Positions 1,636-11,458 of a stretch of DNA of 30,582 nucleotides are shown here, one piece after another. The notes beneath the pieces were generated by a model. That model did no database searches, was not told the DNA's origin, and saw nothing but the letters and a program-made list of their open reading frames with translations. Position numbers and translations under genes: made by a program. Position 1 is the first letter of the stretch, and every line of letters starts with the position of its first letter. Source of the stretch: an archaeon (GTDB lineage Archaea; Nanobdellota; Nanobdellia; Woesearchaeales; ARS49); assembly GCA_016213425.1 (NCBI GenBank), contig JACRAI010000023.1:1-30582 (forward strand), read 5' to 3'.

Positions 1636-2756
1636 TTCACCCTCAAATAACCTATCACGTCATCAACTACAAGTTCTATATTATTTAAATTATCCGAATT
1701 ATTTAATTCGAAAAGCATTCCATTGTTATCTTCTTTTATTTTTTGATACAACTTTTGTTTTTTCTCTTCATCAGTGTACTGGCGATCAAGCACTTGCTTT
1801 ATTCTTTCATCACTCCATCCTCTTTCTTTAAGTCTTCTTTGTCTGCTTTGTTCATCAGCGCTGACTAATACTATGTTATGATTTAATAGGTGAGTCCAGT
1901 TTTTTTCTATCATTATTGCTCCTTCAACAAGGATCAATCCTTTTTTTCCGTAAATTTCTTTTTTGAAACCTCTAATGATTGGTTCTCTCATTAATTCATC
2001 TAATTGGGTCCATTTTTGTTCATCATTGAAAACTATATCTCCTAATTCCTTTCTATTAATGAATCCATCAGTGGATTTTACCTGATCCCCAAATAATTGA
2101 ACTATTTGTTCTCTTATTTTAACGTATAATGGTTCTGTCCATTCACCTAATATTTTGTGGCCTATTTTATCTAAATCTACTGAGTGAACTTCCAAGTTTT
2201 TTTGTTTGCTTAATTCTTCAAATCTTTTTGAAATATAAGATTTTCCTGAACCAGCTCCACCTGCAAGTCCTATTAAGTATTGTCCTGATATTTTTTCTTC
2301 TAATTTTTGTTTTACAGTTAATGGAACATATTTTGTTAAATCTCCATATTCCTTCTGTATTGCTTTTGCTGCGCTTGAACTTACATGTCTTTGTTCTGGT
2401 TTCGCAATTAAAAGGAATGTTTCGATTGATCTTTGACTGTGGCCTATTTCGTGAAGTGCTGTTTCATAATCAAAATCCTTATTATCTCTGACACCTTTAA
2501 CAATTACGTCAACATTATTTTCGTAAGCATAATCAACTAGTAAACCTTCAAAAGAAACTACTTTAACATTTGGGACGTGTGCTAATACTTTTTTCGCTAA
2601 ATCTGTTCTTTCATCTAAATCAAGCAAGTATTTCTTCTCTGGATTGACTCCTATACCAACAATCATTTCATCAAACAATTTAGCAGCTCTTTCTATTAAA
2701 TCAATATGGCCATAAGTTATTGGGTCTGCCGAGAATGCACACATTGATCTAGTCAT
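1632..2756 (-). CDS. coaD: Bifunctional phosphopantetheine adenylyltransferase / dephospho-CoA kinase (CoaD-CoaE fusion)
   Basis: N-terminal FSADPITYGHIDLIERA, KGVR--KDFDYE and HVSSSAAK are bacterial PPAT motifs. C-terminal IGLAGGAGSGKS (P-loop), DLDKIGH, INRKELGDIVFND and QRRLKERG match DPCK. Confidence 0.9.
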   Translation of the reverse strand: MTRSMCAFSADPITYGHIDLIERAAKLFDEMIVGIGVNPEKKYLLDLDERTDLAKKVLAHVPNVKVVSFEGLLVDYAYENNVDVIVKGVRDNKDFDYETALHEIGHSQRSIETFLLIAKPEQRHVSSSAAKAIQKEYGDLTKYVPLTVKQKLEEKISGQYLIGLAGGAGSGKSYISKRFEELSKQKNLEVHSVDLDKIGHKILGEWTEPLYVKIREQIVQLFGDQVKSTDGFINRKELGDIVFNDEQKWTQLDELMREPIIRGFKKEIYGKKGLILVEGAIMIEKNWTHLLNHNIVLVSADEQSRQRRLKERGWSDERIKQVLDRQYTDEEKKQKLYQKIKEDNNGMLFELNNSDNLNNIELVVDDVIGYLRVK

Positions 2757-3219
2757 TTTTTACCTCTTCAGAATTGTTCAAGTAAACTCCTAGTGCTAGA
2801 GAAAATTCTCCTTTTTCAGGAAAATGCGCGGTTCTTCCTATCATGTGAGTATATTTTGTTAATTCTTCTCTTAGTTTTAAACTTGATGAAACAAGAGATC
2901 CAACGTAGACTATATTTTGTGATGTTTTTGGAAATTTATCAATCATTTCCCTAATTAATACCTCCCTAGTCACAGTTATTGCTATTGTGCTTAGCAGTGT
3001 TGCGTAAAGATCTTCTTTTTTGGAGTCAACTTTTGCTTTTCCAAAGTTTGCTATTACCAACTCTCCTTGAAGTGTTCCTTCTTTTTCTGGAAGCTTGTCT
3101 TTAATTAATAATTCAAATATTTCTTCTAAAGTTTGGTCAGCAGTTGAAGCAAAGTTTAATTTATCTGTTTTCCATACTATTTTTGTAAGCGTGCTGCCAA
3201 AATCAATTCCTGCGATCAT
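2749..3219 (-). CDS. coaW: Type II (Staphylococcus CoaW-like) pantothenate kinase homologue with a large in-frame internal deletion; probable pseudoenzyme
   Basis: GIDFGSTLTKIV, GEL-IANFG, NIVYVGS and GEFSLALG match type II PanK N- and C-terminal motifs, but the protein is about 156 aa versus about 270 aa. The likely start is ATG 3219 behind an AGGTGA RBS (the track uses GTG 3228). Confidence 0.75.
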   Translation of the reverse strand: MIAGIDFGSTLTKIVWKTDKLNFASTADQTLEEIFELLIKDKLPEKEGTLQGELVIANFGKAKVDSKKEDLYATLLSTIAITVTREVLIREMIDKFPKTSQNIVYVGSLVSSSLKLREELTKYTHMIGRTAHFPEKGEFSLALGVYLNNSEEVKND

Positions 3220-3294
3220 TTCACTCACCTAATTAAAGCACAATATACTAGATATATAAAATAATCCATCGAAAAATATATAAAAAAGGTAAAA

Positions 3295-3302
3295 TTTATA
3301 AA
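3295..3302 (+). promoter_or_regulatory. Archaeal TATA box with purine-rich BRE-like upstream element; probably a leaderless promoter of the Lrp gene
   Basis: AAAAAGGTAAAA-TTTATAAA centred about 27 nt upstream of ATG 3325, with no SD sequence. Confidence 0.5.
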
Positions 3303-3324
3303 TAAAATACTCTTTTTTAATAAA

Positions 3325-4275
3325 ATGGACTTGATTGATAGGAAAATACTGTGCGAATTGGATTTGAATTGCAGGACTCCTTTGTCACAGCTAGCCAAGA
3401 AACTTAAGGTTGGGAGAAATGTTGTTGATTACAGAATTAAACATTTAGAAAAAGAAAAAATAATAGAAAAATACATTTGTTCTTTAAATCTGGGTTTGCT
3501 AGGTTTCAAGACTTACAAAATTCATTTTAAGGTTAGAAATATTAAAGAAGAAAAAGAATTTGTTAAATATGTATTAGAACATAATTTAGTTGTTAACTGT
3601 GTTAAAGAAGAAGGAGCTTTCGATTATTCTGTTTCAATTGCAGTGAAAAACATAAAAGAACTGGATGAATTCTTGATGACTGTCAAGAATGATTTCAGAG
3701 ATTTAATTAAAGATTATGCAGTCAGCATAATTGTTTACTCCAAAATATTCAAATTAAACAAATTATTGTTGGAAGAAAAAAAAGAGATTCCCAAAATCGA
3801 AAAGTATTCGGGAGAGGAAACCGAAATCAAAACAGATGAAACAGATAAAAAAATTTTAAGAGTTCTATCCCAGGAAGCCAATTTACAGATTATTGATTTG
3901 GCAAGGAGAACAAAGCTAAGTGTTGATGTTGTTAAGTACAGGTTGAAAAATTTAAGCAATTTGATAAATTCTTTCAGGATTTTAATAAATTTCAATAAAT
4001 TAGGATATCACACTTATGTAATAATGTTAAGAATAAGAAAAGCAACTAAACAAGATGAAGAAAAAATGGTTTCCTGGTGTGCGATTAATAAATCGGTCTT
4101 GTACTGCTCCAAAAGAATTGGCTATTATGATTTTACTATAAATATAGCAATAAAAAACATAGAAGAACTAAACAAATTCATTTCAAGATTAAAAGAAGAA
4201 TTCAGCGAAGTAATCGATTCATATGAAACAACACTCAACGGAGATGTTTTAAAGCTGAATTATGTGCCATTTTAA
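3325..4275 (+). CDS. Lrp/AsnC-family transcriptional regulator with two tandem HTH+RAM units
   Basis: Two AsnC-type HTHs (DLIDRKILCEL--NCRTPLSQLAKKL---RNVVDYRIKHLEK and DETDKKILRVL--EANLQIIDLARRT--SVDVVKYRLKNL), each followed by a RAM-like domain (G-FDY / GYYDF). Confidence 0.9.
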   Translation: MDLIDRKILCELDLNCRTPLSQLAKKLKVGRNVVDYRIKHLEKEKIIEKYICSLNLGLLGFKTYKIHFKVRNIKEEKEFVKYVLEHNLVVNCVKEEGAFDYSVSIAVKNIKELDEFLMTVKNDFRDLIKDYAVSIIVYSKIFKLNKLLLEEKKEIPKIEKYSGEETEIKTDETDKKILRVLSQEANLQIIDLARRTKLSVDVVKYRLKNLSNLINSFRILINFNKLGYHTYVIMLRIRKATKQDEEKMVSWCAINKSVLYCSKRIGYYDFTINIAIKNIEELNKFISRLKEEFSEVIDSYETTLNGDVLKLNYVPF

Positions 4276-4310
4276 CTGGTTTGTAGTTCTGGTTTTGAGG
4301 TTTGTAGTTA
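4276..4310 (-). repeat. Degenerate heptamer tandem tract 1 (unit about ACYNCAA)
   Basis: The minus strand reads ACTACAA ACCTCAA AACCAGA ACTACAA ACCAG. The tract abuts the Lrp stop codon. Confidence 0.65.
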
Positions 4311-4350
4311 AAAAGAAGAAATATCTGCTAAAAATTCAAAGAAAAACGAA

Positions 4351-4704
4351 TCAACCTTTGTGTATCTTAATTTCATCTTCGGATACTATTGTTACACTGT
4401 TTTCTAATTTGCCTTTTATTTTTGACTTGAGAAGTTTAATCAGAGTCACACTTACCATTTTTGGTAATTGCAGTCTAAAACGCAGAAGAATGATTCCTTT
4501 ATGCTTAACTTTTTGATTCAAAACATTCGCAAAATCTTTGTCATGAGTGATAATTATTCTTTTTTCTTTATTTGCTAATTCTAGAACTTCTTTGTCACTC
4601 GCACCATGAAAGTTTTCTGCTTTTATATCTTTAACATCAAAACCCTCTTCAAGAAGAGATTTATACACCGAAGTGGCTATGTTTTCGTCAGTTAAGAACT
4701 TCAT
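4351..4704 (-). CDS. DUF5615 PIN-like (VapC45-type) toxin
   Basis: MKFLTDENI, D-EVL--A-KEKRIIITHDKDF. The likely start is ATG 4704 (the track uses TTG 4710). Confidence 0.85.
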   Translation of the reverse strand: MKFLTDENIATSVYKSLLEEGFDVKDIKAENFHGASDKEVLELANKEKRIIITHDKDFANVLNQKVKHKGIILLRFRLQLPKMVSVTLIKLLKSKIKGKLENSVTIVSEDEIKIHKG

Positions 4705-4706
4705 TT

Positions 4707-4937
4707 TCAAGCTATTTTAGCAGTTGGATAAACTTCTTCATGCTGCAAAGCACCAGTAGCATATTTTAGTGATGCAAGCACATCTTCTCTGGATAAATGA
4801 GGGTACTCCTGAATTAATTCATCAATACTCATACCTGAAGAAAGTAATTCCAAAATAAACTCTACAGACATTCTTGTCCCTTTAATAACTGGTTTTCCCG
4901 CCAAAATCTCAGGGTCAATAACTATTCTTCCATTCAT
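4707..4937 (-). CDS. DUF433 antitoxin (VapB45-type)
   Basis: RIVIDPEILAGKPVIKGTRMSVEFILELL--GMSIDELIQEYPHLSREDV is the canonical DUF433 pattern. It lies directly upstream of the DUF5615 gene. Confidence 0.9.
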   Translation of the reverse strand: MNGRIVIDPEILAGKPVIKGTRMSVEFILELLSSGMSIDELIQEYPHLSREDVLASLKYATGALQHEEVYPTAKIA

Positions 4938-4996
4938 GTATCATAATAAAACAAATCAATATTTAAATTTAACTGCGTTGCTAGATATTTTTTCTA

Positions 4997-5719
4997 TTAC
5001 TCTGTGCGTCTCCGACGCACCCTAACCAAACGGGCGTTGCAGTCGCCAAGACTGTAGCTGCCATGCGCAGACGACCTACTGCTGCAGTAGACGTTGACGA
5101 ACCCGCCGAGGCACCAAGCCCCCAGAGAAGGTTTCCTTAGAGGTTCAACAAGATAAACTGCCATTCCTTCACTTATCTTATAATTATCTCTTAAGTATTT
5201 GAAAACTTTTTCAACATACGCACCTAACAAATTTTGATCTCTTCCAGCAAGTTCAAACCAAACAGGATTATTCTTAGCTTCATTCTCTGTTAACAGTATT
5301 CCCGTGTGTTCCTTTCTAACATTTTTACTAAAAATCACCCCTTCAAAACTATCATAAACACTTTCTTCCAAAAGCAAAACACCATCAACCAACTTAGTTC
5401 TAGAATTTATATTTCTTAAAAGCTCACAATCATGAACAACCTTAAAACTACCATCAGGATGACAAGCCAACCCAGTACCAGAATCAAGATAATCATTAAT
5501 TAACAAAAAATCATTAAAACACAAACGCATAAGCAACAAATCACTAAAATCAGCAGGAAAACCCTCACCCAACAACACAGGCATCACACTAACAAAACTT
5601 TCCCCCTCAAAAATCTTATAACCAGAATAATCAACACCATCAAAAAGTAATTCTTTCTCTCTAACAAAACCCTGCTTTCCAACACCACCCAAATAATCAT
5701 CCAAAACCATAATACCCAC
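4997..5719 (-). CDS. Putative DGR target protein (archaeal CLec-fold, AvpA-like) with a C-terminal variable region
   Basis: The C-terminus LGAWCLGG...RSSAHGSYSLGDCNARLVRV has the W..G...S.A.G...L....RLV layout recalled for DPANN DGR variable proteins. It also has an NNC-codon-rich, GC-rich 3' end and a downstream GGA-triloop hairpin. The start may be GTG 5719 or ATG 5710. Confidence 0.75.
   Translation of the reverse strand: MGIMVLDDYLGGVGKQGFVREKELLFDGVDYSGYKIFEGESFVSVMPVLLGEGFPADFSDLLLMRLCFNDFLLINDYLDSGTGLACHPDGSFKVVHDCELLRNINSRTKLVDGVLLLEESVYDSFEGVIFSKNVRKEHTGILLTENEAKNNPVWFELAGRDQNLLGAYVEKVFKYLRDNYKISEGMAVYLVEPLRKPSLGAWCLGGFVNVYCSSRSSAHGSYSLGDCNARLVRVRRRRTE
5004..5020 (-). promoter_or_regulatory. 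DGR-type cis-acting DNA hairpin, 7-bp stem with a GGA (GRA) triloop
   Basis: The minus strand reads GTGCGTC-GGA-GACGCAC, a perfect inverted repeat with a C-G closing pair, immediately 3' of the VR. Confidence 0.7.
5019..5116 (-). mobile_element. Putative DGR variable region (VR) with an IMH-like 3' end
   Basis: 18 of the 27 codons from 5113 to 5033 end in C and none ends in A. No codon among the first ~60 of the gene ends in C. The region ends ...GCCCGTTTGGTTAGGGT. Confidence 0.7.
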
Positions 5720-5789
5720 ACAAAAAAACGCTCTTTAAAAAAACTATTGAAAACAATTATAAAACACAAAAATTATTATGTTAATAATT

Positions 5790-7061
5790 TCACGAATGAG
5801 TTTCATGCACTATATTTTCAGAAATTTCTCCTCTTAAATTTTGTCCAAACAATTCTTTTACTTGTTTAGGATGATTGCTTAATAGCCATGCTAGTTTTAT
5901 AAATGCTGTTTCTGGAGTCATATCACAATAATTTCCCAACACTCCAATTTCTAAAAGTCTTCTTCCTGGAGTGTAAACGTTCATGTCAACTATCCCATAA
6001 ATTGTTTGAGTGGTCATGACTACTGGCATGTTTTTGCTTAATTTTTTTATTACTTCAAAAATTTTCTCGTGCTCTTTTGTTAATTTATCAATTTCATTAA
6101 TTGGTGCATGACCTAACCCTGTTCCTTCTATCACTAACCCGTCAAATTTCTCAAAAGCTTTGAATTCTTCAACAAACATATTAGTGTGTACTTTTAGCAG
6201 ACCAACTTTTAGTTTTTCATCAAAAAGTTGCAGTGAAAATTTACCTTCTGTCTTCGATGGTCCTTTTAGCAGAGTTATTTGTTTCGAATCATAATTTATT
6301 TTCGCTATGGGTGTTGTATTTATTGCTTGAAATGCGTCTCTTCTTGACGAATGCATTTTTCTGCATTTTGTTCCTGGAAGAATAACACAATGGTTGTCAT
6401 CGCTGTGTTCATGCATGCATAATGCAACCCCAGTATATTTTGTGTTGGCAATAAATGTCACTGCAGAAATCAAGTTTGATGCTGCATCGCTGCTTCCTCT
6501 ATCACTGCTTCTTTGAGCACCAACCAACAAAACAGGGATAGGACAATTTTCTAGAGCGAAACTTAATGCTGCACCAGTGTAATGCATTGTATCTGTTCCA
6601 TGAGTTATTATTACCCCTTTAACGCCTTTTTTTATTTCTTCATCTACTGCTTTAGCCATTATGTTATAATGAGAAAAGCGCATGTCATCTGATGACATGT
6701 TGCTTAGTAGTCTTGATGAAATGTTTGCCATATTTTGCAGTTCAGGAAACATTCTGAGCATTTCTTCAGGAGTGAACTTGTTGTAAACAGCTCCAGTTTC
6801 ATAATCCACTTTGGAAGCAATTGTTCCACCAGTATGCAAGATAGAAATTGTTGGCAGGCCTTTCTTTTGTTCTGTTTTCAAAGGTTTTTCTTGAGGTTCT
6901 TTTCTTGCTTCTAAAACTTTTATTTTTGCTTGTTTTTTGTTAATGCTTATATTGTAGCCAGTGTCGAGTTTTAGAACTAAGAAATTTTCTTCTTCAGGCA
7001 TTAAAACTCCTTCAAAAGTTCCTAAATTCGATTCTACTTTTACTCTGTCGCCCGGTTTCAT
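5790..7061 (-). CDS. gatD: Glutamyl-tRNA(Gln) amidotransferase subunit D
   Basis: N-terminal GDRVKV...G-LMP...LKLDTGYNI domain, TGGTIASKVDYETGAV, HGTDTM, GAQRSSDRGSSD, RKMHSSRRDAF and DMTPETAFIKLAWLL. Confidence 0.95.
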   Translation of the reverse strand: MKPGDRVKVESNLGTFEGVLMPEEENFLVLKLDTGYNISINKKQAKIKVLEARKEPQEKPLKTEQKKGLPTISILHTGGTIASKVDYETGAVYNKFTPEEMLRMFPELQNMANISSRLLSNMSSDDMRFSHYNIMAKAVDEEIKKGVKGVIITHGTDTMHYTGAALSFALENCPIPVLLVGAQRSSDRGSSDAASNLISAVTFIANTKYTGVALCMHEHSDDNHCVILPGTKCRKMHSSRRDAFQAINTTPIAKINYDSKQITLLKGPSKTEGKFSLQLFDEKLKVGLLKVHTNMFVEEFKAFEKFDGLVIEGTGLGHAPINEIDKLTKEHEKIFEVIKKLSKNMPVVMTTQTIYGIVDMNVYTPGRRLLEIGVLGNYCDMTPETAFIKLAWLLSNHPKQVKELFGQNLRGEISENIVHETHS

Positions 7062-7065
7062 TTAA

Positions 7066-7623
7066 TCAAAAATCAACTTTAGGAGCTGTTTGAGCTCCTG
7101 CATCTGCTTTGAAAGATTCTTTAACATTAAAACCAAACAAGGATGCTACAATATTTGTAGGTAGTCTTCTTACCTTTACATTGTAAAGTTGCACCGCACC
7201 GTTATAATCTTGTCTTGCAACTGCAACTCTATTTTCCGTACCTTCTAATTGAGCTTGCAAGTTCAAGAAGTTCTCACTTGCTTTTAATTGAGGATAATTT
7301 TCAGCAACTAACAGTAATCTTCCTATTGCTCCATCAAGTTCTTGCGCAGTGTTTACTGAAGGGTTTGAAGACCATTGACTTCTTAACTCTGTAATTTTAG
7401 TGAATAAATCTGCTTCATGAGTTGCATAACCTTTAACTGTTTCAACTATATTAGGTATTAAATCAAATCTTCTTTGGTATTGTGCTTGAACATTGCCCCA
7501 TGCTTTGTTCACATTTTCATCCGTGCTAACTAAACTGTTGTAGCTTCCGGCAAACCATATTAGTAACAATAAAACTAATACTCCTAAACCAATCAATACT
7601 TTTTGTGTTGTGTTTAATGTCAT
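7066..7623 (-). CDS. lemA: LemA family protein
   Basis: N-terminal TM helix, YNSLV..DE.V..AW.NV..QYQRRFDLIPN, LLLVAENYPQLKA and QLEGTENRVAVAR.DYN. It has an AGGTGA RBS. Confidence 0.95.
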   Translation of the reverse strand: MTLNTTQKVLIGLGVLVLLLLIWFAGSYNSLVSTDENVNKAWGNVQAQYQRRFDLIPNIVETVKGYATHEADLFTKITELRSQWSSNPSVNTAQELDGAIGRLLLVAENYPQLKASENFLNLQAQLEGTENRVAVARQDYNGAVQLYNVKVRRLPTNIVASLFGFNVKESFKADAGAQTAPKVDF

Positions 7624-7691
7624 TATCTCACCTTCGCATCACCATATTTGTTTTCGATTTAAAAAGATTACTGATAAAGTTTGGAGTTCTG

Positions 7692-7733
7692 AGCACGTAC
7701 CACGAACTGCAAACCATGAACCACAAACTACTC
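7692..7733 (+). repeat. Degenerate heptamer tandem tract 2, with an inverted arm at 7679-7689
   Basis: AGCACGT ACCACGA ACTGCAA ACCATGA ACCACAA ACTACTC at the 3' end of the TPM gene. GTTTGGAGTTC (7679-7689) pairs with GAACTGCAAAC (7704-7714) at 10 of 11 positions. Confidence 0.65.
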
Positions 7734-8588
7734 AAGGAATCTTCCTCCGCTACCACCGCCACTGAAACCACCGCCACCACCGAAACTGAAACCACCGCTA
7801 CCGCCAGAACTACCATATCCTCCTAAACCACCACTACCCATACCATATTTGCCAGATCCGTAATACCCATTTGTTCTTAACAAAAAAAATAGCGAGAAGA
7901 AAAGCATAACAAAAAGAGCAGATATGAAAATATCTATAGCTATAAACCAGGCAATAATCATTACAAATAACTCAGCTCCAAAAAATGTTGTGTACTTTTT
8001 TGCTTTTTTCTTTATCTTAGTACAGTATTGTGCAAACTTCATAAAAAAGATTGCGGCTCCAAAAAGAAAAAGCGGTGTAAAATCTCGGAAATTATTAGAT
8101 TTATATTCTTCAAGAACTGAAGGATCGTTTTTTAGTAATTTTTGGATTTTTATCAATGCAAGGTAAATTCCTTCACCATAATCTTCTGCTTTGAAATGAG
8201 GAACCATTACTTTTCTTCCTAAATTTGAGGATACAACATCGGGAATTGATCCCTCTAAACCTGAACCAACCTCTATACGCCACTCTCTTTCCTCTAAAGC
8301 AACAAGAATCACTAAACCATTTTTTTGCTTGCCAACACCCCATTCACGACCTATATTTAATGCAACTTCTTCAACGGGACGTCCTTCAAGTGAAGGCAAA
8401 GTTACTACTGCAATTTCTACAGTTAATTCTTTTTCGATTTGAGAAATCAAATCATTAATCTTTATTTTATCTTGATTTGTAAGTACCCCTGCAAAATCAT
8501 TAACCCATCCTTGAGGTTTAGGTATTTCTAGAGCTAGCGCTGGAGTGATGAACAATAAAAGCGATAAAAACACCAGAGCTTTTTTCAT
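7728..8588 (-). CDS. TPM-domain (YgcG/TLP18.3-like) membrane protein with a Gly-rich tail
   Basis: WVNDFAGVL, EIAVVTLPSLEG, WGVG--KNGLVILVA--EREWRIEVG-GLEG-IPD, TM helices and a GGGGFSGGGSGG tail. It forms the typical pairing with lemA. Confidence 0.9.
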   Translation of the reverse strand: MKKALVFLSLLLFITPALALEIPKPQGWVNDFAGVLTNQDKIKINDLISQIEKELTVEIAVVTLPSLEGRPVEEVALNIGREWGVGKQKNGLVILVALEEREWRIEVGSGLEGSIPDVVSSNLGRKVMVPHFKAEDYGEGIYLALIKIQKLLKNDPSVLEEYKSNNFRDFTPLFLFGAAIFFMKFAQYCTKIKKKAKKYTTFFGAELFVMIIAWFIAIDIFISALFVMLFFSLFFLLRTNGYYGSGKYGMGSGGLGGYGSSGGSGGFSFGGGGGFSGGGSGGRFLE

Positions 8589-8619
8589 ATTTTTGAAAAA
8601 AGAAAAGAATTATTTAAAT

Positions 8620-8656
8620 GTTTGCAGTAATTCTAACCTCAAACTCCAAACCAGTT
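8620..8656 (+). repeat. Degenerate heptamer tract 3 with an inverted arm
   Basis: ACCTCAA ACTCCAA ACCAGTT (8636-8656) abuts the stop of the 8655-9041 gene. GTTTGCAGT (8620-8628) pairs with ACTCCAAAC (8643-8651) at 8 of 9 positions. Confidence 0.55.
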
Positions 8657-9041
8657 ATTCGCCCCAACGCTCATCAGGCAAATTGTTTGCTTCAATGTAT
8701 CTAACTTTATCAGTTACTAGTCTTGCTTTGAATTCTTCTCTCAATCTACCAAACAGTCGAAAATCCTCTTGAGATAATTGAGATCTGTTGGCTTGAAAAT
8801 TTAGCTCAAATAATCCATATTCTTCATTTACTAAATCGAGTTTTCTCTGATAATCCTCACTAGTTATATTATAATTATTTTCCAAAGAATCGAGCACATT
8901 ATCTAAATTTTTAGCATAACTCATCAATTTGGTAAAATAATTTTTGTCAGATCTTTTAGACAGAGAATGAGTTGTGTAATTTGGTGCAACACAACCTTGA
9001 AAAAGAAGGCCTGCAAGTATTGTTCCTATTATTTTTCTCAT
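8655..9041 (-). CDS. Hypothetical lipoprotein-like protein
   Basis: 128-aa ORF with a signal peptide and lipobox-like MRKIIGTILAGLLFQGC. It looks helical; no family recognised. Confidence 0.7.
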   Translation of the reverse strand: MRKIIGTILAGLLFQGCVAPNYTTHSLSKRSDKNYFTKLMSYAKNLDNVLDSLENNYNITSEDYQRKLDLVNEEYGLFELNFQANRSQLSQEDFRLFGRLREEFKARLVTDKVRYIEANNLPDERWGE

Positions 9042-9122
9042 GATTAGTTTAAACTAACAGATATTTAAAATACTTTCCTTTTATTTCATAAATGATTTAA
9101 AGAGATAAAATAAGAAAAAAGT

Positions 9123-9779
9123 ATGGATTGTGTAATTCTTGCAGGAGGTAAGGGTAGCAGGATGGAAGATCCGCTGCCTAAAGCAATGATTGAAGCAGGA
9201 GGCAAAGCAATAATCATGCACCAATTAGAATACTTAGTTAATAAAGCAGATGATATAGTTATTTCATTAGGATATAAGTCTGAAGAAGTTATTAAGTATG
9301 TTGAAGAAAATTTCAAGAGCAGCTCAATAAAATACGTAGTAGAAACAGAACCTTTAGGCACAGCCGGTGGGCTGAAATTGGCGTTGCAAAAAACAAAATC
9401 TGACCTTGTTCTAGTTTTGAATTGTGATGATATAGCAGATATTGACTTAAAAAAATTAGAAGAATATAATGATAACACCATTTGTGTTGCTCATCCCAGA
9501 TTGCCTTTTGGTTTAGTGAACAGTTATTGCGGGTACGCTGAATTTTTAGAGAAACCTTTACTTAATTGCTGGACTAGCTGCGGATGGTACCTGCTGAAAA
9601 GAGAGGCTATTAATGAGTTGCCAGATAAAGGAAGTATTGAATATGATATTTTTCAAACAAGAAAAATAAAAATGAGAGTTTATGAACATGAAGGATTCTG
9701 GAGTGCTTTAAATACAAAGAAAGATATTGAAGAATTTGAAAAAAATTTAAATAATAGAACAAAAAAAGATCAGTTATGA
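9123..9779 (+). CDS. Sugar-phosphate nucleotidyltransferase (NTP_transferase family)
   Basis: ILAGGKGSRM, LPKAMIE-GGK-II, ETEPLGTAGGL and VLNCDD. Confidence 0.9.
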   Translation: MDCVILAGGKGSRMEDPLPKAMIEAGGKAIIMHQLEYLVNKADDIVISLGYKSEEVIKYVEENFKSSSIKYVVETEPLGTAGGLKLALQKTKSDLVLVLNCDDIADIDLKKLEEYNDNTICVAHPRLPFGLVNSYCGYAEFLEKPLLNCWTSCGWYLLKREAINELPDKGSIEYDIFQTRKIKMRVYEHEGFWSALNTKKDIEEFEKNLNNRTKKDQL

Positions 9780-11458
9780 AAAGATTATTGGTGATATTAC
9801 TTTTGTTATTTCTTGCTTGCCAGCCAAGCTTCGAATCCGAAGGAGATATAATGGATTTGAAAGCAAAGTGTACAAGTTTAGGCGGAAATTATTGTGAAAG
9901 AAATCAACACTGCAAAGGAACTGCTTTAGACGAAAGCTGTTGTGCTGAAAAATGCGATTATTCTAGTATCATTTTTTCCCAAGCCATGGCCAGTGAAGCA
10001 AAAGATATTTGTGTTATACCTGGAAATACTTGTAGTGATGGACTGTGCAAAATTATTGCAGTTGTTGACGAAGAAGTAAAAAATACATTAAGTACAGAAT
10101 TAAGCACTTGGAAGCAAGACATAAAAAATGATTTAAATATGCAAGTTGAATTTTTAAGTTTTCCAAGCAACACCCTGCCATACCAAATTAAATCGGCTAT
10201 TGCAGAAAAATACAACGAAAAAGTTCAAGGAACAGTAATTATTGGAGATATTCCAACAATGTATTACGGAGGGGGATATTTGGGAGAAGTCTATCCCAGT
10301 GATTATTATTATGTTGATCTTTTAGGTTACTGCAGTGATGAGTATAAAAAAGTCCCTAAAGAAGAATACTCTGAAACATACACTCCTGCTTTTACTGAAG
10401 ATAAAAATTATTTTTATCAAGGAGATTACCAAAAAGACTGCATGAAATCAAGTCAAGTTTACGTGAAGCCTTTCTGGACGGGAAGAATCAGTCCTGGAAG
10501 CGATAAGATTAACACTTTAAAAAAATATTTTGAAAGAAATCATGCTTACAGAATTGGACAATTAAAGTATGAAAAATTTCTTGCCTTCTACCCAATATTA
10601 TTTACAGACCACAAAGAAGAAGATGTAAGCTTTGACTTGGATAGTTTGTACACAAAAGAAGAAAAAAATATCATTCCAATAATAAAAGATCCTGAAGTTG
10701 AAGAAGTTCAAGGAGTTGAACTTGAAAGATTAGGCACTTCAGCAAAAATGTATTTGAAAGAATTGAAGAAACCTTATGAATTTGTTTATTATGATGGCCA
10801 CGGATGGCCTTTAAGTCACCAGCCCAATATTAATAATGAAGATATTGAGAAAACTATGCCTCAAGCAATGTTTTATGATATTAACTCTTGTTCTGTAGGA
10901 AGATTCACTGTTAAAGAAAACATTGCAGGCAAGTACTTGTACAGCGGCAATGGTTTAGTTGCTTTCGCTGCAACAACACCAGTGTTAGGAGGACCTCCTC
11001 AAATTACTGAAAGATATGCAAGTGCTCTCAAAAATGGTTTGACTTTTGGCGAAATACAAAATTTATTCATACAAAACCAGCCCGCGCATATTTTAGGAGA
11101 TCCAACACTTAGAATGAGAAATCCTGCCGGGAAAGCTCAAGCTTGCTTAGATAACTTAATTCTTGACTTTGGAAAATTAAAACAAGGAGAAACTGGAATG
11201 GTTAACTTAACAATTTATAATACAGGAAAAGATGTTTTGAAAATACAACAAACAATTAAAGAATTGCCAGGTAATTACCAGAGCAATTTTATTTTTAATT
11301 TTAATTGTGAAGGAGACATTCTTCCAGGAGAAAACATGAACTGCTTTTTCAGAGCAAACAGCGAAGAAAAAGGAATTCACGACGGAGTTATTTACTTAAT
11401 AACAAACGATCCAAATAATAAATTAATAAAGATTTATTTCAAAGGAAAACAAGAGTGA
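9776..11458 (+). CDS. Lipoprotein with a gingipain-like (peptidase C25/clan CD) domain and a C-terminal Ig-like domain
   Basis: Lipobox-like LLLFLAC and a Cys-rich N-terminus. IIGD-P, SDYYY-DL, WTGRI, DGHG (His), NSCSVG (Cys) and ILGDPTL fit a C25 domain. The LDFG...LTIYNTG...ILPGE...TNDP segment looks like an Ig-like beta-sandwich. Confidence 0.65.
   Translation: MKRLLVILLLLFLACQPSFESEGDIMDLKAKCTSLGGNYCERNQHCKGTALDESCCAEKCDYSSIIFSQAMASEAKDICVIPGNTCSDGLCKIIAVVDEEVKNTLSTELSTWKQDIKNDLNMQVEFLSFPSNTLPYQIKSAIAEKYNEKVQGTVIIGDIPTMYYGGGYLGEVYPSDYYYVDLLGYCSDEYKKVPKEEYSETYTPAFTEDKNYFYQGDYQKDCMKSSQVYVKPFWTGRISPGSDKINTLKKYFERNHAYRIGQLKYEKFLAFYPILFTDHKEEDVSFDLDSLYTKEEKNIIPIIKDPEVEEVQGVELERLGTSAKMYLKELKKPYEFVYYDGHGWPLSHQPNINNEDIEKTMPQAMFYDINSCSVGRFTVKENIAGKYLYSGNGLVAFAATTPVLGGPPQITERYASALKNGLTFGEIQNLFIQNQPAHILGDPTLRMRNPAGKAQACLDNLILDFGKLKQGETGMVNLTIYNTGKDVLKIQQTIKELPGNYQSNFIFNFNCEGDILPGENMNCFFRANSEEKGIHDGVIYLITNDPNNKLIKIYFKGKQE

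Follow-up and report, generated by a model that had tools for sequence, protein, structure and literature searches.

The window, meaning the whole 30,582-nucleotide stretch of woesearchaeotal DNA analysed here, carries on its minus strand an open reading frame (ORF) at 4997..5719 that encodes 240 amino acids from a GTG start, or 237 in the database form that begins at the ATG at 5710. The stop codon lies at 4999-4997, the tail of the ORF reads ...ARLVRVRRRRTE, and the frame terminates ...GDCNARLVRVRRRRTE. A Pfam search of the protein returned no family, and a word-indexed protein search returned only the protein itself; a full HMMER scan gave 410 relatives, 152 of them below 1e-10. A related-locus search with one protein relative (P0005) found nothing. 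The alignment of the family (A1) has a conserved body, a conserved HPDG.FK.V segment and a C-terminal fixed framework, W...RS.A.G..L....RLVGV, with residues in between that vary freely. When the AlphaFold model built on A1 (pLDDT 89.8, pTM 0.86) was compared with the PDB by Foldseek, the sole significant match was AvpA (5ioo_A; E 1.3e-9, probability 1.00, TM 0.68/0.77). When PDB sequences were searched with a profile, AvpA again ranked first, with a marginal E of 0.053, and the aligned part was exactly the segment of the variable region (VR).

AvpA (PDB 5IOO) is the variable protein of a nanoarchaeal DGR, known from a crystal structure and described as a new subclass of the C-type lectins (Handa et al. 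2016, PMC5006420). Its IMH encodes the invariant beta-5 strand RFxGV, its hairpin falls within the codons of a disordered tail, and its other two conserved motifs are GxxVVVYAH and HPxxxPFxG (Handa et al. 2016, PMC5006420). As modelled, the product of 4997..5719 (-) is an AvpA-like protein with a C-type lectin fold and a C-terminal VR, whose predicted beta-5 motif RLVRV is encoded by the IMH. The ORF, the HMMER relatives and the structural match all point to a gene for a DGR variable protein, referred to below as the target gene.

The probable VR occupies 5021..5125 (-), a 60%-GC island rich in NNC codons, and in alignment it corresponds to the VRs of those homologues with a cognate template repeat (TR). 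Its limits are estimates because a TR is absent here, and the 5' limit is placed by analogy with relatives. At its 3' end is the IMH-like sequence CGTTTGGTTAGGGT (5019..5032, minus strand), which has the core AGGGT at 5023-5019 and encodes the RLVRV motif. Directly after it, within the final codons of the ORF, the minus strand forms a perfect 7-bp hairpin composed of GTGCGTC (5020-5014), GGA (5013-5011) and GACGCAC (5010-5004), and reads ...GCCCGTTTGGTTAGG GTGCGTC GGA GACGCAC AGAG TAA; in its wider setting (5040-4985) the strand reads GCAACGCCCGTTTGGTTAGG GTGCGTC GGA GACGCAC AGAG TAA TAGAAAAAATAT. The preliminary description had reported such a C(GGA)G hairpin in the last codons and a TAGGGT motif at 5024-5019, and both are exact on the minus strand. 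Five of the seven pairs are G-C, there is no spacer after the VR, and the left arm takes in the last two bases of the IMH core, an overlap seen in no other homologue examined. DGR target sites feature an inverted repeat, GC-rich and immediately 3' of the VR, whose loop runs from G to A on the sense strand, and we annotate 5004..5020 (-) as a putative target-recognition hairpin on the combined evidence of sequence, fold, assembly scan, family census, covariation and codon phase. The motif d[C(GNA)G] forms mini-hairpins and ranks among the stable DNA triloops; the closing C(GGA)G of the window fits it.

In DNA folding, the structure of lowest predicted energy is this hairpin, at -7.5 kcal/mol. 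This energy is weakly unusual when the same GC-rich 56-mer is shuffled (z -1.64, with 11 of 200 shuffles equal). The preliminary description had proposed searching the genome for other N7-GRA-N7' hairpins as a way of listing all targets. The scan of the 1.07 Mb assembly did yield 26 perfect 7-bp stems with a GRA loop on the two strands; none besides that of the window has at least five G-C pairs. We estimate that about one GC-rich GRA stem per genome would be expected by chance, and the mere existence of the hairpin is therefore not significant. Genome-wide rarity is a weak argument on its own and is not relied on. Both the modest z-score and this chance expectation would suit an inverted repeat that is only a by-product of coding or that arose by chance where GC content is high. 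The significance of the hairpin comes instead from its position and from its conservation with covariation in homologues. The region 5000-5150 is ~60% GC in a genome of 32% GC, and the hairpin abuts the 3' end of this island.

The family provides the context that the window itself does not. An HMM of A1 was run on 401 sampled genomes of the same order and matched in 59 of them, a tally that takes in the unpublished genomes G156 and G348; sequence-level claims rest on the other genomes. At several loci a second, short match to the HMM lies a few hundred bases downstream of the gene, and alignment identified these matches as template repeats. At L008, L015, L020 and L033, all of which the window gene and its VR match by profile, the VR equals the TR except at TR adenines. 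The VR has ...GTCGGGGTA where the TR has ...GTCGGAATA; the copies finish ...GTCGGGGTAGC in the VR and ...GTCGGAATAGC in the TR, and homology stops just before the hairpin. The end of the VR is thus GGGGTA in homologues, against GGAATA for the TR. The homologues at these four loci are established DGR targets in the order target, TR, reverse transcriptase (RT); the RT (PF00078) that follows the TR scored E 1.1e-28 at L008 and E 7.9e-22 at L020. The same VR/TR logic holds in the distant paralogues L007 and L024 and in the same-family genome G024, where VR CTCGGGTGCGTCC stands against TR CTCGAATGGCC, or CGGGTG against CGAATG. These 3' ends indicate that the discriminating core is GGGT in the recipient and GAAT in the donor. 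In nanoarchaeal DGRs the IMH has TGGGGT and the IMH* TGGAAT, the hairpins have GRA triloops, and they lie inside the target gene (Paul et al. 2015, PMC4372165); the preliminary description had named the GRA loops and the TGGGGT-like IMH of DPANN DGRs correctly. In the TR 3' flanks of eight loci (L008, L009, L015, L033, L045, L052, L055 and L056), a conserved GCTGGGACAC-like motif occurs ~15–25 nt 3' of the IMH*. It is absent from VR flanks and possibly belongs to the portion of the DGR RNA that priming requires.

Against this family pattern, the IMH core of the window is AGGGT-G, and the commonest homologue form is GGGGTA. The base before the core is G or C among relatives and A in the window; since this base varies among relatives, AGGGT is best read as an intact core with a variant flanking base. 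The forms that come nearest to GGGTGCGTC of the window are those of the same-family genomes G024 and G012. Compared with the commonest arrangement, GGGGT-A-GCGCC-GGA-GGCGC, the window lacks the A after the core, which shifts the frame by one base and leads to an Arg-rich tail and an early stop, and its C-terminal tail is shorter than in most homologues. An A-run (AAAAAA, 4988..4993, minus strand) follows 10 nt 3' of the hairpin and outside the ORF. Similar runs of 5–7 A are found in many homologues (L008, L009, L015, L016, L021, L028, L045, L046, L055 and L056), ~8–12 nt 3' of the hairpin and inside the ORF, where they encode ..QKN.. or ..EK...

The hairpin itself was counted in the family wherever 5 bp or more, four or more of them G-C, formed a perfect stem with a 3-nt loop within ~95 nt of the VR 3' end. 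By this census it is present at 24 of 52 distinct homologue VR 3' ends (loops: GGA 15, GAA 4, GGT 2, GGG 1, AGA 1, GTA 1) and at none of 11 TR 3' sides, while shuffled VR ends gave a mean of 1.0 in 52 with a hairpin and 0.05 with a GRA loop. By this strict criterion, a perfect hairpin is missing from about half of the homologues, many of which have shorter or imperfect stems. Together with the TRs and RTs of the homologues and their GGGGTA/GGAATA ends, the restriction of the hairpin to the VR side upholds the earlier reading of the element as a DGR signal.

Covariation was assessed in an alignment (A2) of 19 copies chosen for a hairpin adjoining the IMH. All 19 copies keep the five core pairs (100% paired), a percentage that is partly the product of selection because the copies were chosen for an adjacent hairpin; the compensatory changes are the informative part. 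Such variation occurs at two pairs (CG 16, UA 2, GC 1 at one; CG 16, AU 1, GC 1, UG 1 at the other). The covariation score of A2 was reached by none of 500 shuffles, and pairing fell from 88% to 18–50% when the 3' partner was slid. Only 1 of 95 core cells holds a G-U pair.

The position of the hairpin relative to the reading frame varies as well. Among the GRA hairpins, the loop is in codon phase 2 in 11 (peptides APEA, ASET, ARDA and AAEP) and in phase 0 in seven (SAGGA, RAEGA, GAEGA and SDGVA); two hairpins follow the stop codon, and phase 1 is used by the window alone (VRRRRTE). In most homologues the hairpin is within the ORF, 60–250 nt upstream of the stop codon. Because the hairpin may fall in any of three codon phases or beyond the stop, and because its stem changes in a compensatory way, the constraint acts on the nucleic acid and not on the peptide. 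A protein-level constraint on the hairpin is ruled out, as pairing is kept while peptide and codon phase differ. The proposal that the odd RVRRRRTE tail reflects constraint on DNA rather than on protein is accordingly borne out by the homologues, which show the opposite of the refuting outcome named with it, a retained peptide over lost base pairing. The same results bear on the by-product or chance explanation raised above. In its favour, the peptide VAPEA over the hairpin is common to most homologues. However, pairing and the GRA loop persist under peptides as different as VRRRRTE, ASET, ARDA, AAEP, SAGGA and RAEGA, the hairpin uses every codon phase as well as positions beyond the stop, the stem has compensatory double changes, and 24 of 52 ends carry the hairpin against ~1 of 52 in shuffles. 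Census, covariation and codon phase effectively refute this explanation already, and we regard it as extremely improbable.

Covariation is equally compatible with pairing in RNA. The stem-loop could then act in the mRNA, through 3'-end stability or as a signal in transcription or translation, instead of as a DNA element for target recognition, and its location at or near the transcript 3' end would suit such a role. In same-family relatives (L041, L043 and L068), a hairpin with a GRA loop lies beyond the stop codon, ~55 nt 3' of the IMH, and a T-run comes next; because of this T-run, these hairpins could also act as terminators there. In the window, however, a scan for terminator-like sites was negative and the run 3' of the hairpin consists of A, not T, so a terminator was rejected; a known RNA family was likewise rejected, as an Rfam search gave no match. 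Further, the position of the hairpin follows the boundary of VR and IMH, and the TR side is transcribed as well, yet it has no such hairpin. Its location in most homologues, well inside the ORF, and the near lack of G-U pairs likewise speak against a role in mRNA, and the equivalent element of phage BPP-1 acts on the target DNA (PMC3240598). A role in mRNA in place of DNA recognition is therefore highly unlikely.

The target gene sits in an otherwise conserved neighbourhood. The GatD protein encoded there has its best matches in Woesearchaeota/Nanoarchaeia MAGs, and the host is a DPANN archaeon. Positions 2500-9500 of the window are syntenic with contig C41 of the same-genus genome G001 (AsnC-type regulator, DUF433, GatD, LemA and TPM; 63–95% protein identity). 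At the site of the AvpA-like gene, G001 has an intact gene for a 78-amino acid MJ1316-domain protein (PF04457, E 3e-18; L315:6186-6422). Both ends of that gene are kept in the window. The last ~6 codons form a 3' remnant at 4969..4987 (-), recognised by G001 synteny and alignment A3, and the first ~11 codons form a 5' remnant at 5773..5806 (-) that overlaps the gatD stop codon (alignment A4). Since these remnants mark the two edges, the target gene and its own upstream region are a ~785-nt cassette that replaced the gene body, with a 3' junction ~16 nt beyond the hairpin, just after the A-run. Judged from this comparison, the AvpA-like gene is a lineage-specific cassette. One could speculate that, beyond serving as a homing signal, the IMH, hairpin and A-run delimit a mobile target-gene cassette on its 3' side, and that DPANN DGR targets reach new places in the chromosome as hairpin-bounded modules, possibly by RT-mediated insertion, and so seed new remote targets; we consider this distinctly unlikely. 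Immediately downstream of the target gene, at 4351-4937 (-), is a pair of genes for a DUF433 protein (76 aa) and a DUF5615/PIN-like protein (119 aa), a probable toxin-antitoxin module. The DUF433 protein is 95% identical in G001, and the PIN-like gene had no tblastn match at the syntenic site of G001.

A search for the cognate TR and RT addressed whether the site could still be in use. Within the window, the VR has no AAC-rich counterpart. The assembly, which is 56% complete, gave no VR copy or TR in an ungapped scan at 60% identity or more or by an IMH*-type regular expression, and no RT with PF00078 or in tblastn searches with the RTs of six relatives. A 28-nt pattern for the 3' part of the VR/TR, TCTTNNCNNCNNCNNCGCCCGTTTGGTT, had no match in public genome or viral contig collections. 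The pattern GCCCGTTTGGTTRGRRT was searched in public genome and metagenome contigs, where the matches listed were chance matches only, with at most 36 of 100 upstream bases equal to the VR. The TR of G001 was considered as the cognate and rejected, its repeat being unrelated to the VR of the window. On its minus strand, the DGR of G001 (L066) combines a single TR with two VRs (7043-7118, 7394-7469 and 10183-10258); the VR end is CTCGTGGGGTGG and the TR end is CTCGTGAATGAT, and neither the repeat nor the target is related to the VR of the window.

These searches raise the possibility that the site is a relic, that is, a DGR target when it was acquired, which now resides in a genome with no cognate DGR and has inherited an intact IMH and hairpin that go unused. 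The missing TR and RT are consistent with this, as are the atypical IMH, the tail truncated relative to most homologues, the inserted cassette that is absent from the syntenic site of G001, and the mismatch between the VR and the TR of G001's own DGR. AvpA-like proteins of Woesearchaeota without a DGR have also been listed (Handa et al., PMC5006420). On the other side, only 56% of the genome is assembled, and RT genes occur in all four same-family relatives queried. Moreover, the perfect 7-bp stem and the 60%-GC island persist in a 32%-GC genome, and any decay must therefore be slight. Same-family genome G012, which is 100% complete, has seven dispersed AvpA-like paralogues on six contigs (L038-L044), most of them far from any RT. 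They share a common VR framework, NNC-type variation and a common 3' flank, GAGCCC GAA GGGC.... Because these paralogues are mostly remote from an RT, trans-acting diversification of remote targets is plausible in the lineage. The IMH core in G012 is polymorphic (CGAGTA/CGGGTA), and both RT matches of that genome are cut by contig ends. Taken together, a relic is a serious minority possibility.

For the window itself, we give roughly even odds to a live target and a well-preserved relic. The perfect stem, intact ORF and sharp GC island argue against long neglect of the site. The clean assembly through the VR, together with the atypical IMH, argues mildly against activity, and clean assembly of the contig at this point may mean little population diversity at the site.

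In our reading, 5004-5020 (-) is most probably the cis-acting DNA hairpin of a DPANN-type DGR target site, which together with the IMH-like ...GGTTAGGGT marks the 3' boundary of the VR in an AvpA-like gene; we put the probability of this at about 0.85. The hairpin would be functional in this genome, and a cognate TR and RT would exist, by extension from the homologues. Under this scheme, a DGR reverse transcriptase encoded elsewhere would copy TR RNA into adenine-mutagenised cDNA, and the copy in the window would be distinguished as recipient by its G-rich IMH (GGGT, where the TR has GAAT). Immediately 3' of the IMH, the GC-rich stem, closed by a stable C(GGA)G triloop, could extrude as a cruciform or hairpin, and the extruded structure would allow target recognition and cDNA integration, steps for which the experimental basis is Bordetella phage BPP-1 only. 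A hairpin flanking the VR is needed for homing in BPP-1 (Guo et al. 2011, PMC3240598), in line with the preliminary description, which had stated that hairpins 3' of the IMH are required for DGR retrohoming. The mechanistic role suggested for the archaeal hairpin is borrowed from those experiments by analogy.

The hairpin and IMH of the window add one more case to the signals known from nanoarchaeal DGRs (Paul et al. 2015; Handa et al. 2016). The comparative data, namely occurrence on the VR side only, compensatory changes and the use of three codon phases, support the published view and do not extend the mechanism; the DGR mechanism as known is unchanged. Across dozens of DPANN genomes, hairpins with a GRA triloop and the change from GGGT in the IMH to GAAT in the IMH* emerge as general features of AvpA-type archaeal DGRs, and an anonymous woesearchaeotal gene is flagged as a candidate hypervariable surface or ligand-binding protein. 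A prediction also follows, in that the missing TR should end in a ...GCCCGTTTGGTTAGAAT-like sequence. Remote targets are an acknowledged blind spot of DGR surveys, and an IMH core combined with a GC stem and a GRA loop is a possible search key for those that RT-centred surveys miss (Roux et al. 2021, PMC8144416).

Among known systems, remote (orphan) DGR targets resemble the locus in being VR genes with an IMH and hairpin and with no adjacent TR or RT; dispersed AvpA-like paralogues are present in G012. Recognised remote targets, however, have a known cognate TR elsewhere in the genome, whereas that of the window was not found in the 56%-complete assembly. The target site of BPP-1 (Guo et al. 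2011) is similar in its GC-rich stem of 7–10 bp just 3' of the VR, on the VR side and not the TR side, and in a strand-specific loop sequence with G first and A last. It differs in its 4-nt GRNA loop, 4-bp spacer, non-coding position after the stop codon and experimentally shown function, compared with a 3-nt GGA loop, no spacer, a coding position and a predicted function in the window. With AvpA (5IOO), the target protein shares the predicted fold, a VR near the C-terminus, an IMH-encoded beta-5 strand (RFxGV in AvpA, RLVRV in the window) and a hairpin that encodes residues after the VR. The two proteins have ~14% sequence identity, and the tail of AvpA extends 46 residues after the VR, whereas the protein of the window ends eight residues after the beta-5 motif. 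The closest comparison is with the DUSEL4 nanoarchaeal DGRs (Paul et al. 2015, Nat Commun 6:6585). From these the window departs in its IMH (TAGGGT-G, not TGGGGT), in a stem that overlaps the last two IMH bases, in a codon phase unlike that of every homologue examined, and in having no TR or RT nearby or in the assembly. It agrees with them in its DPANN host and in a GC-rich hairpin with a GRA loop within the target gene, and the GGGT core against GAAT in the IMH* that characterises the DUSEL4 DGRs is likewise present in the homologues described here.
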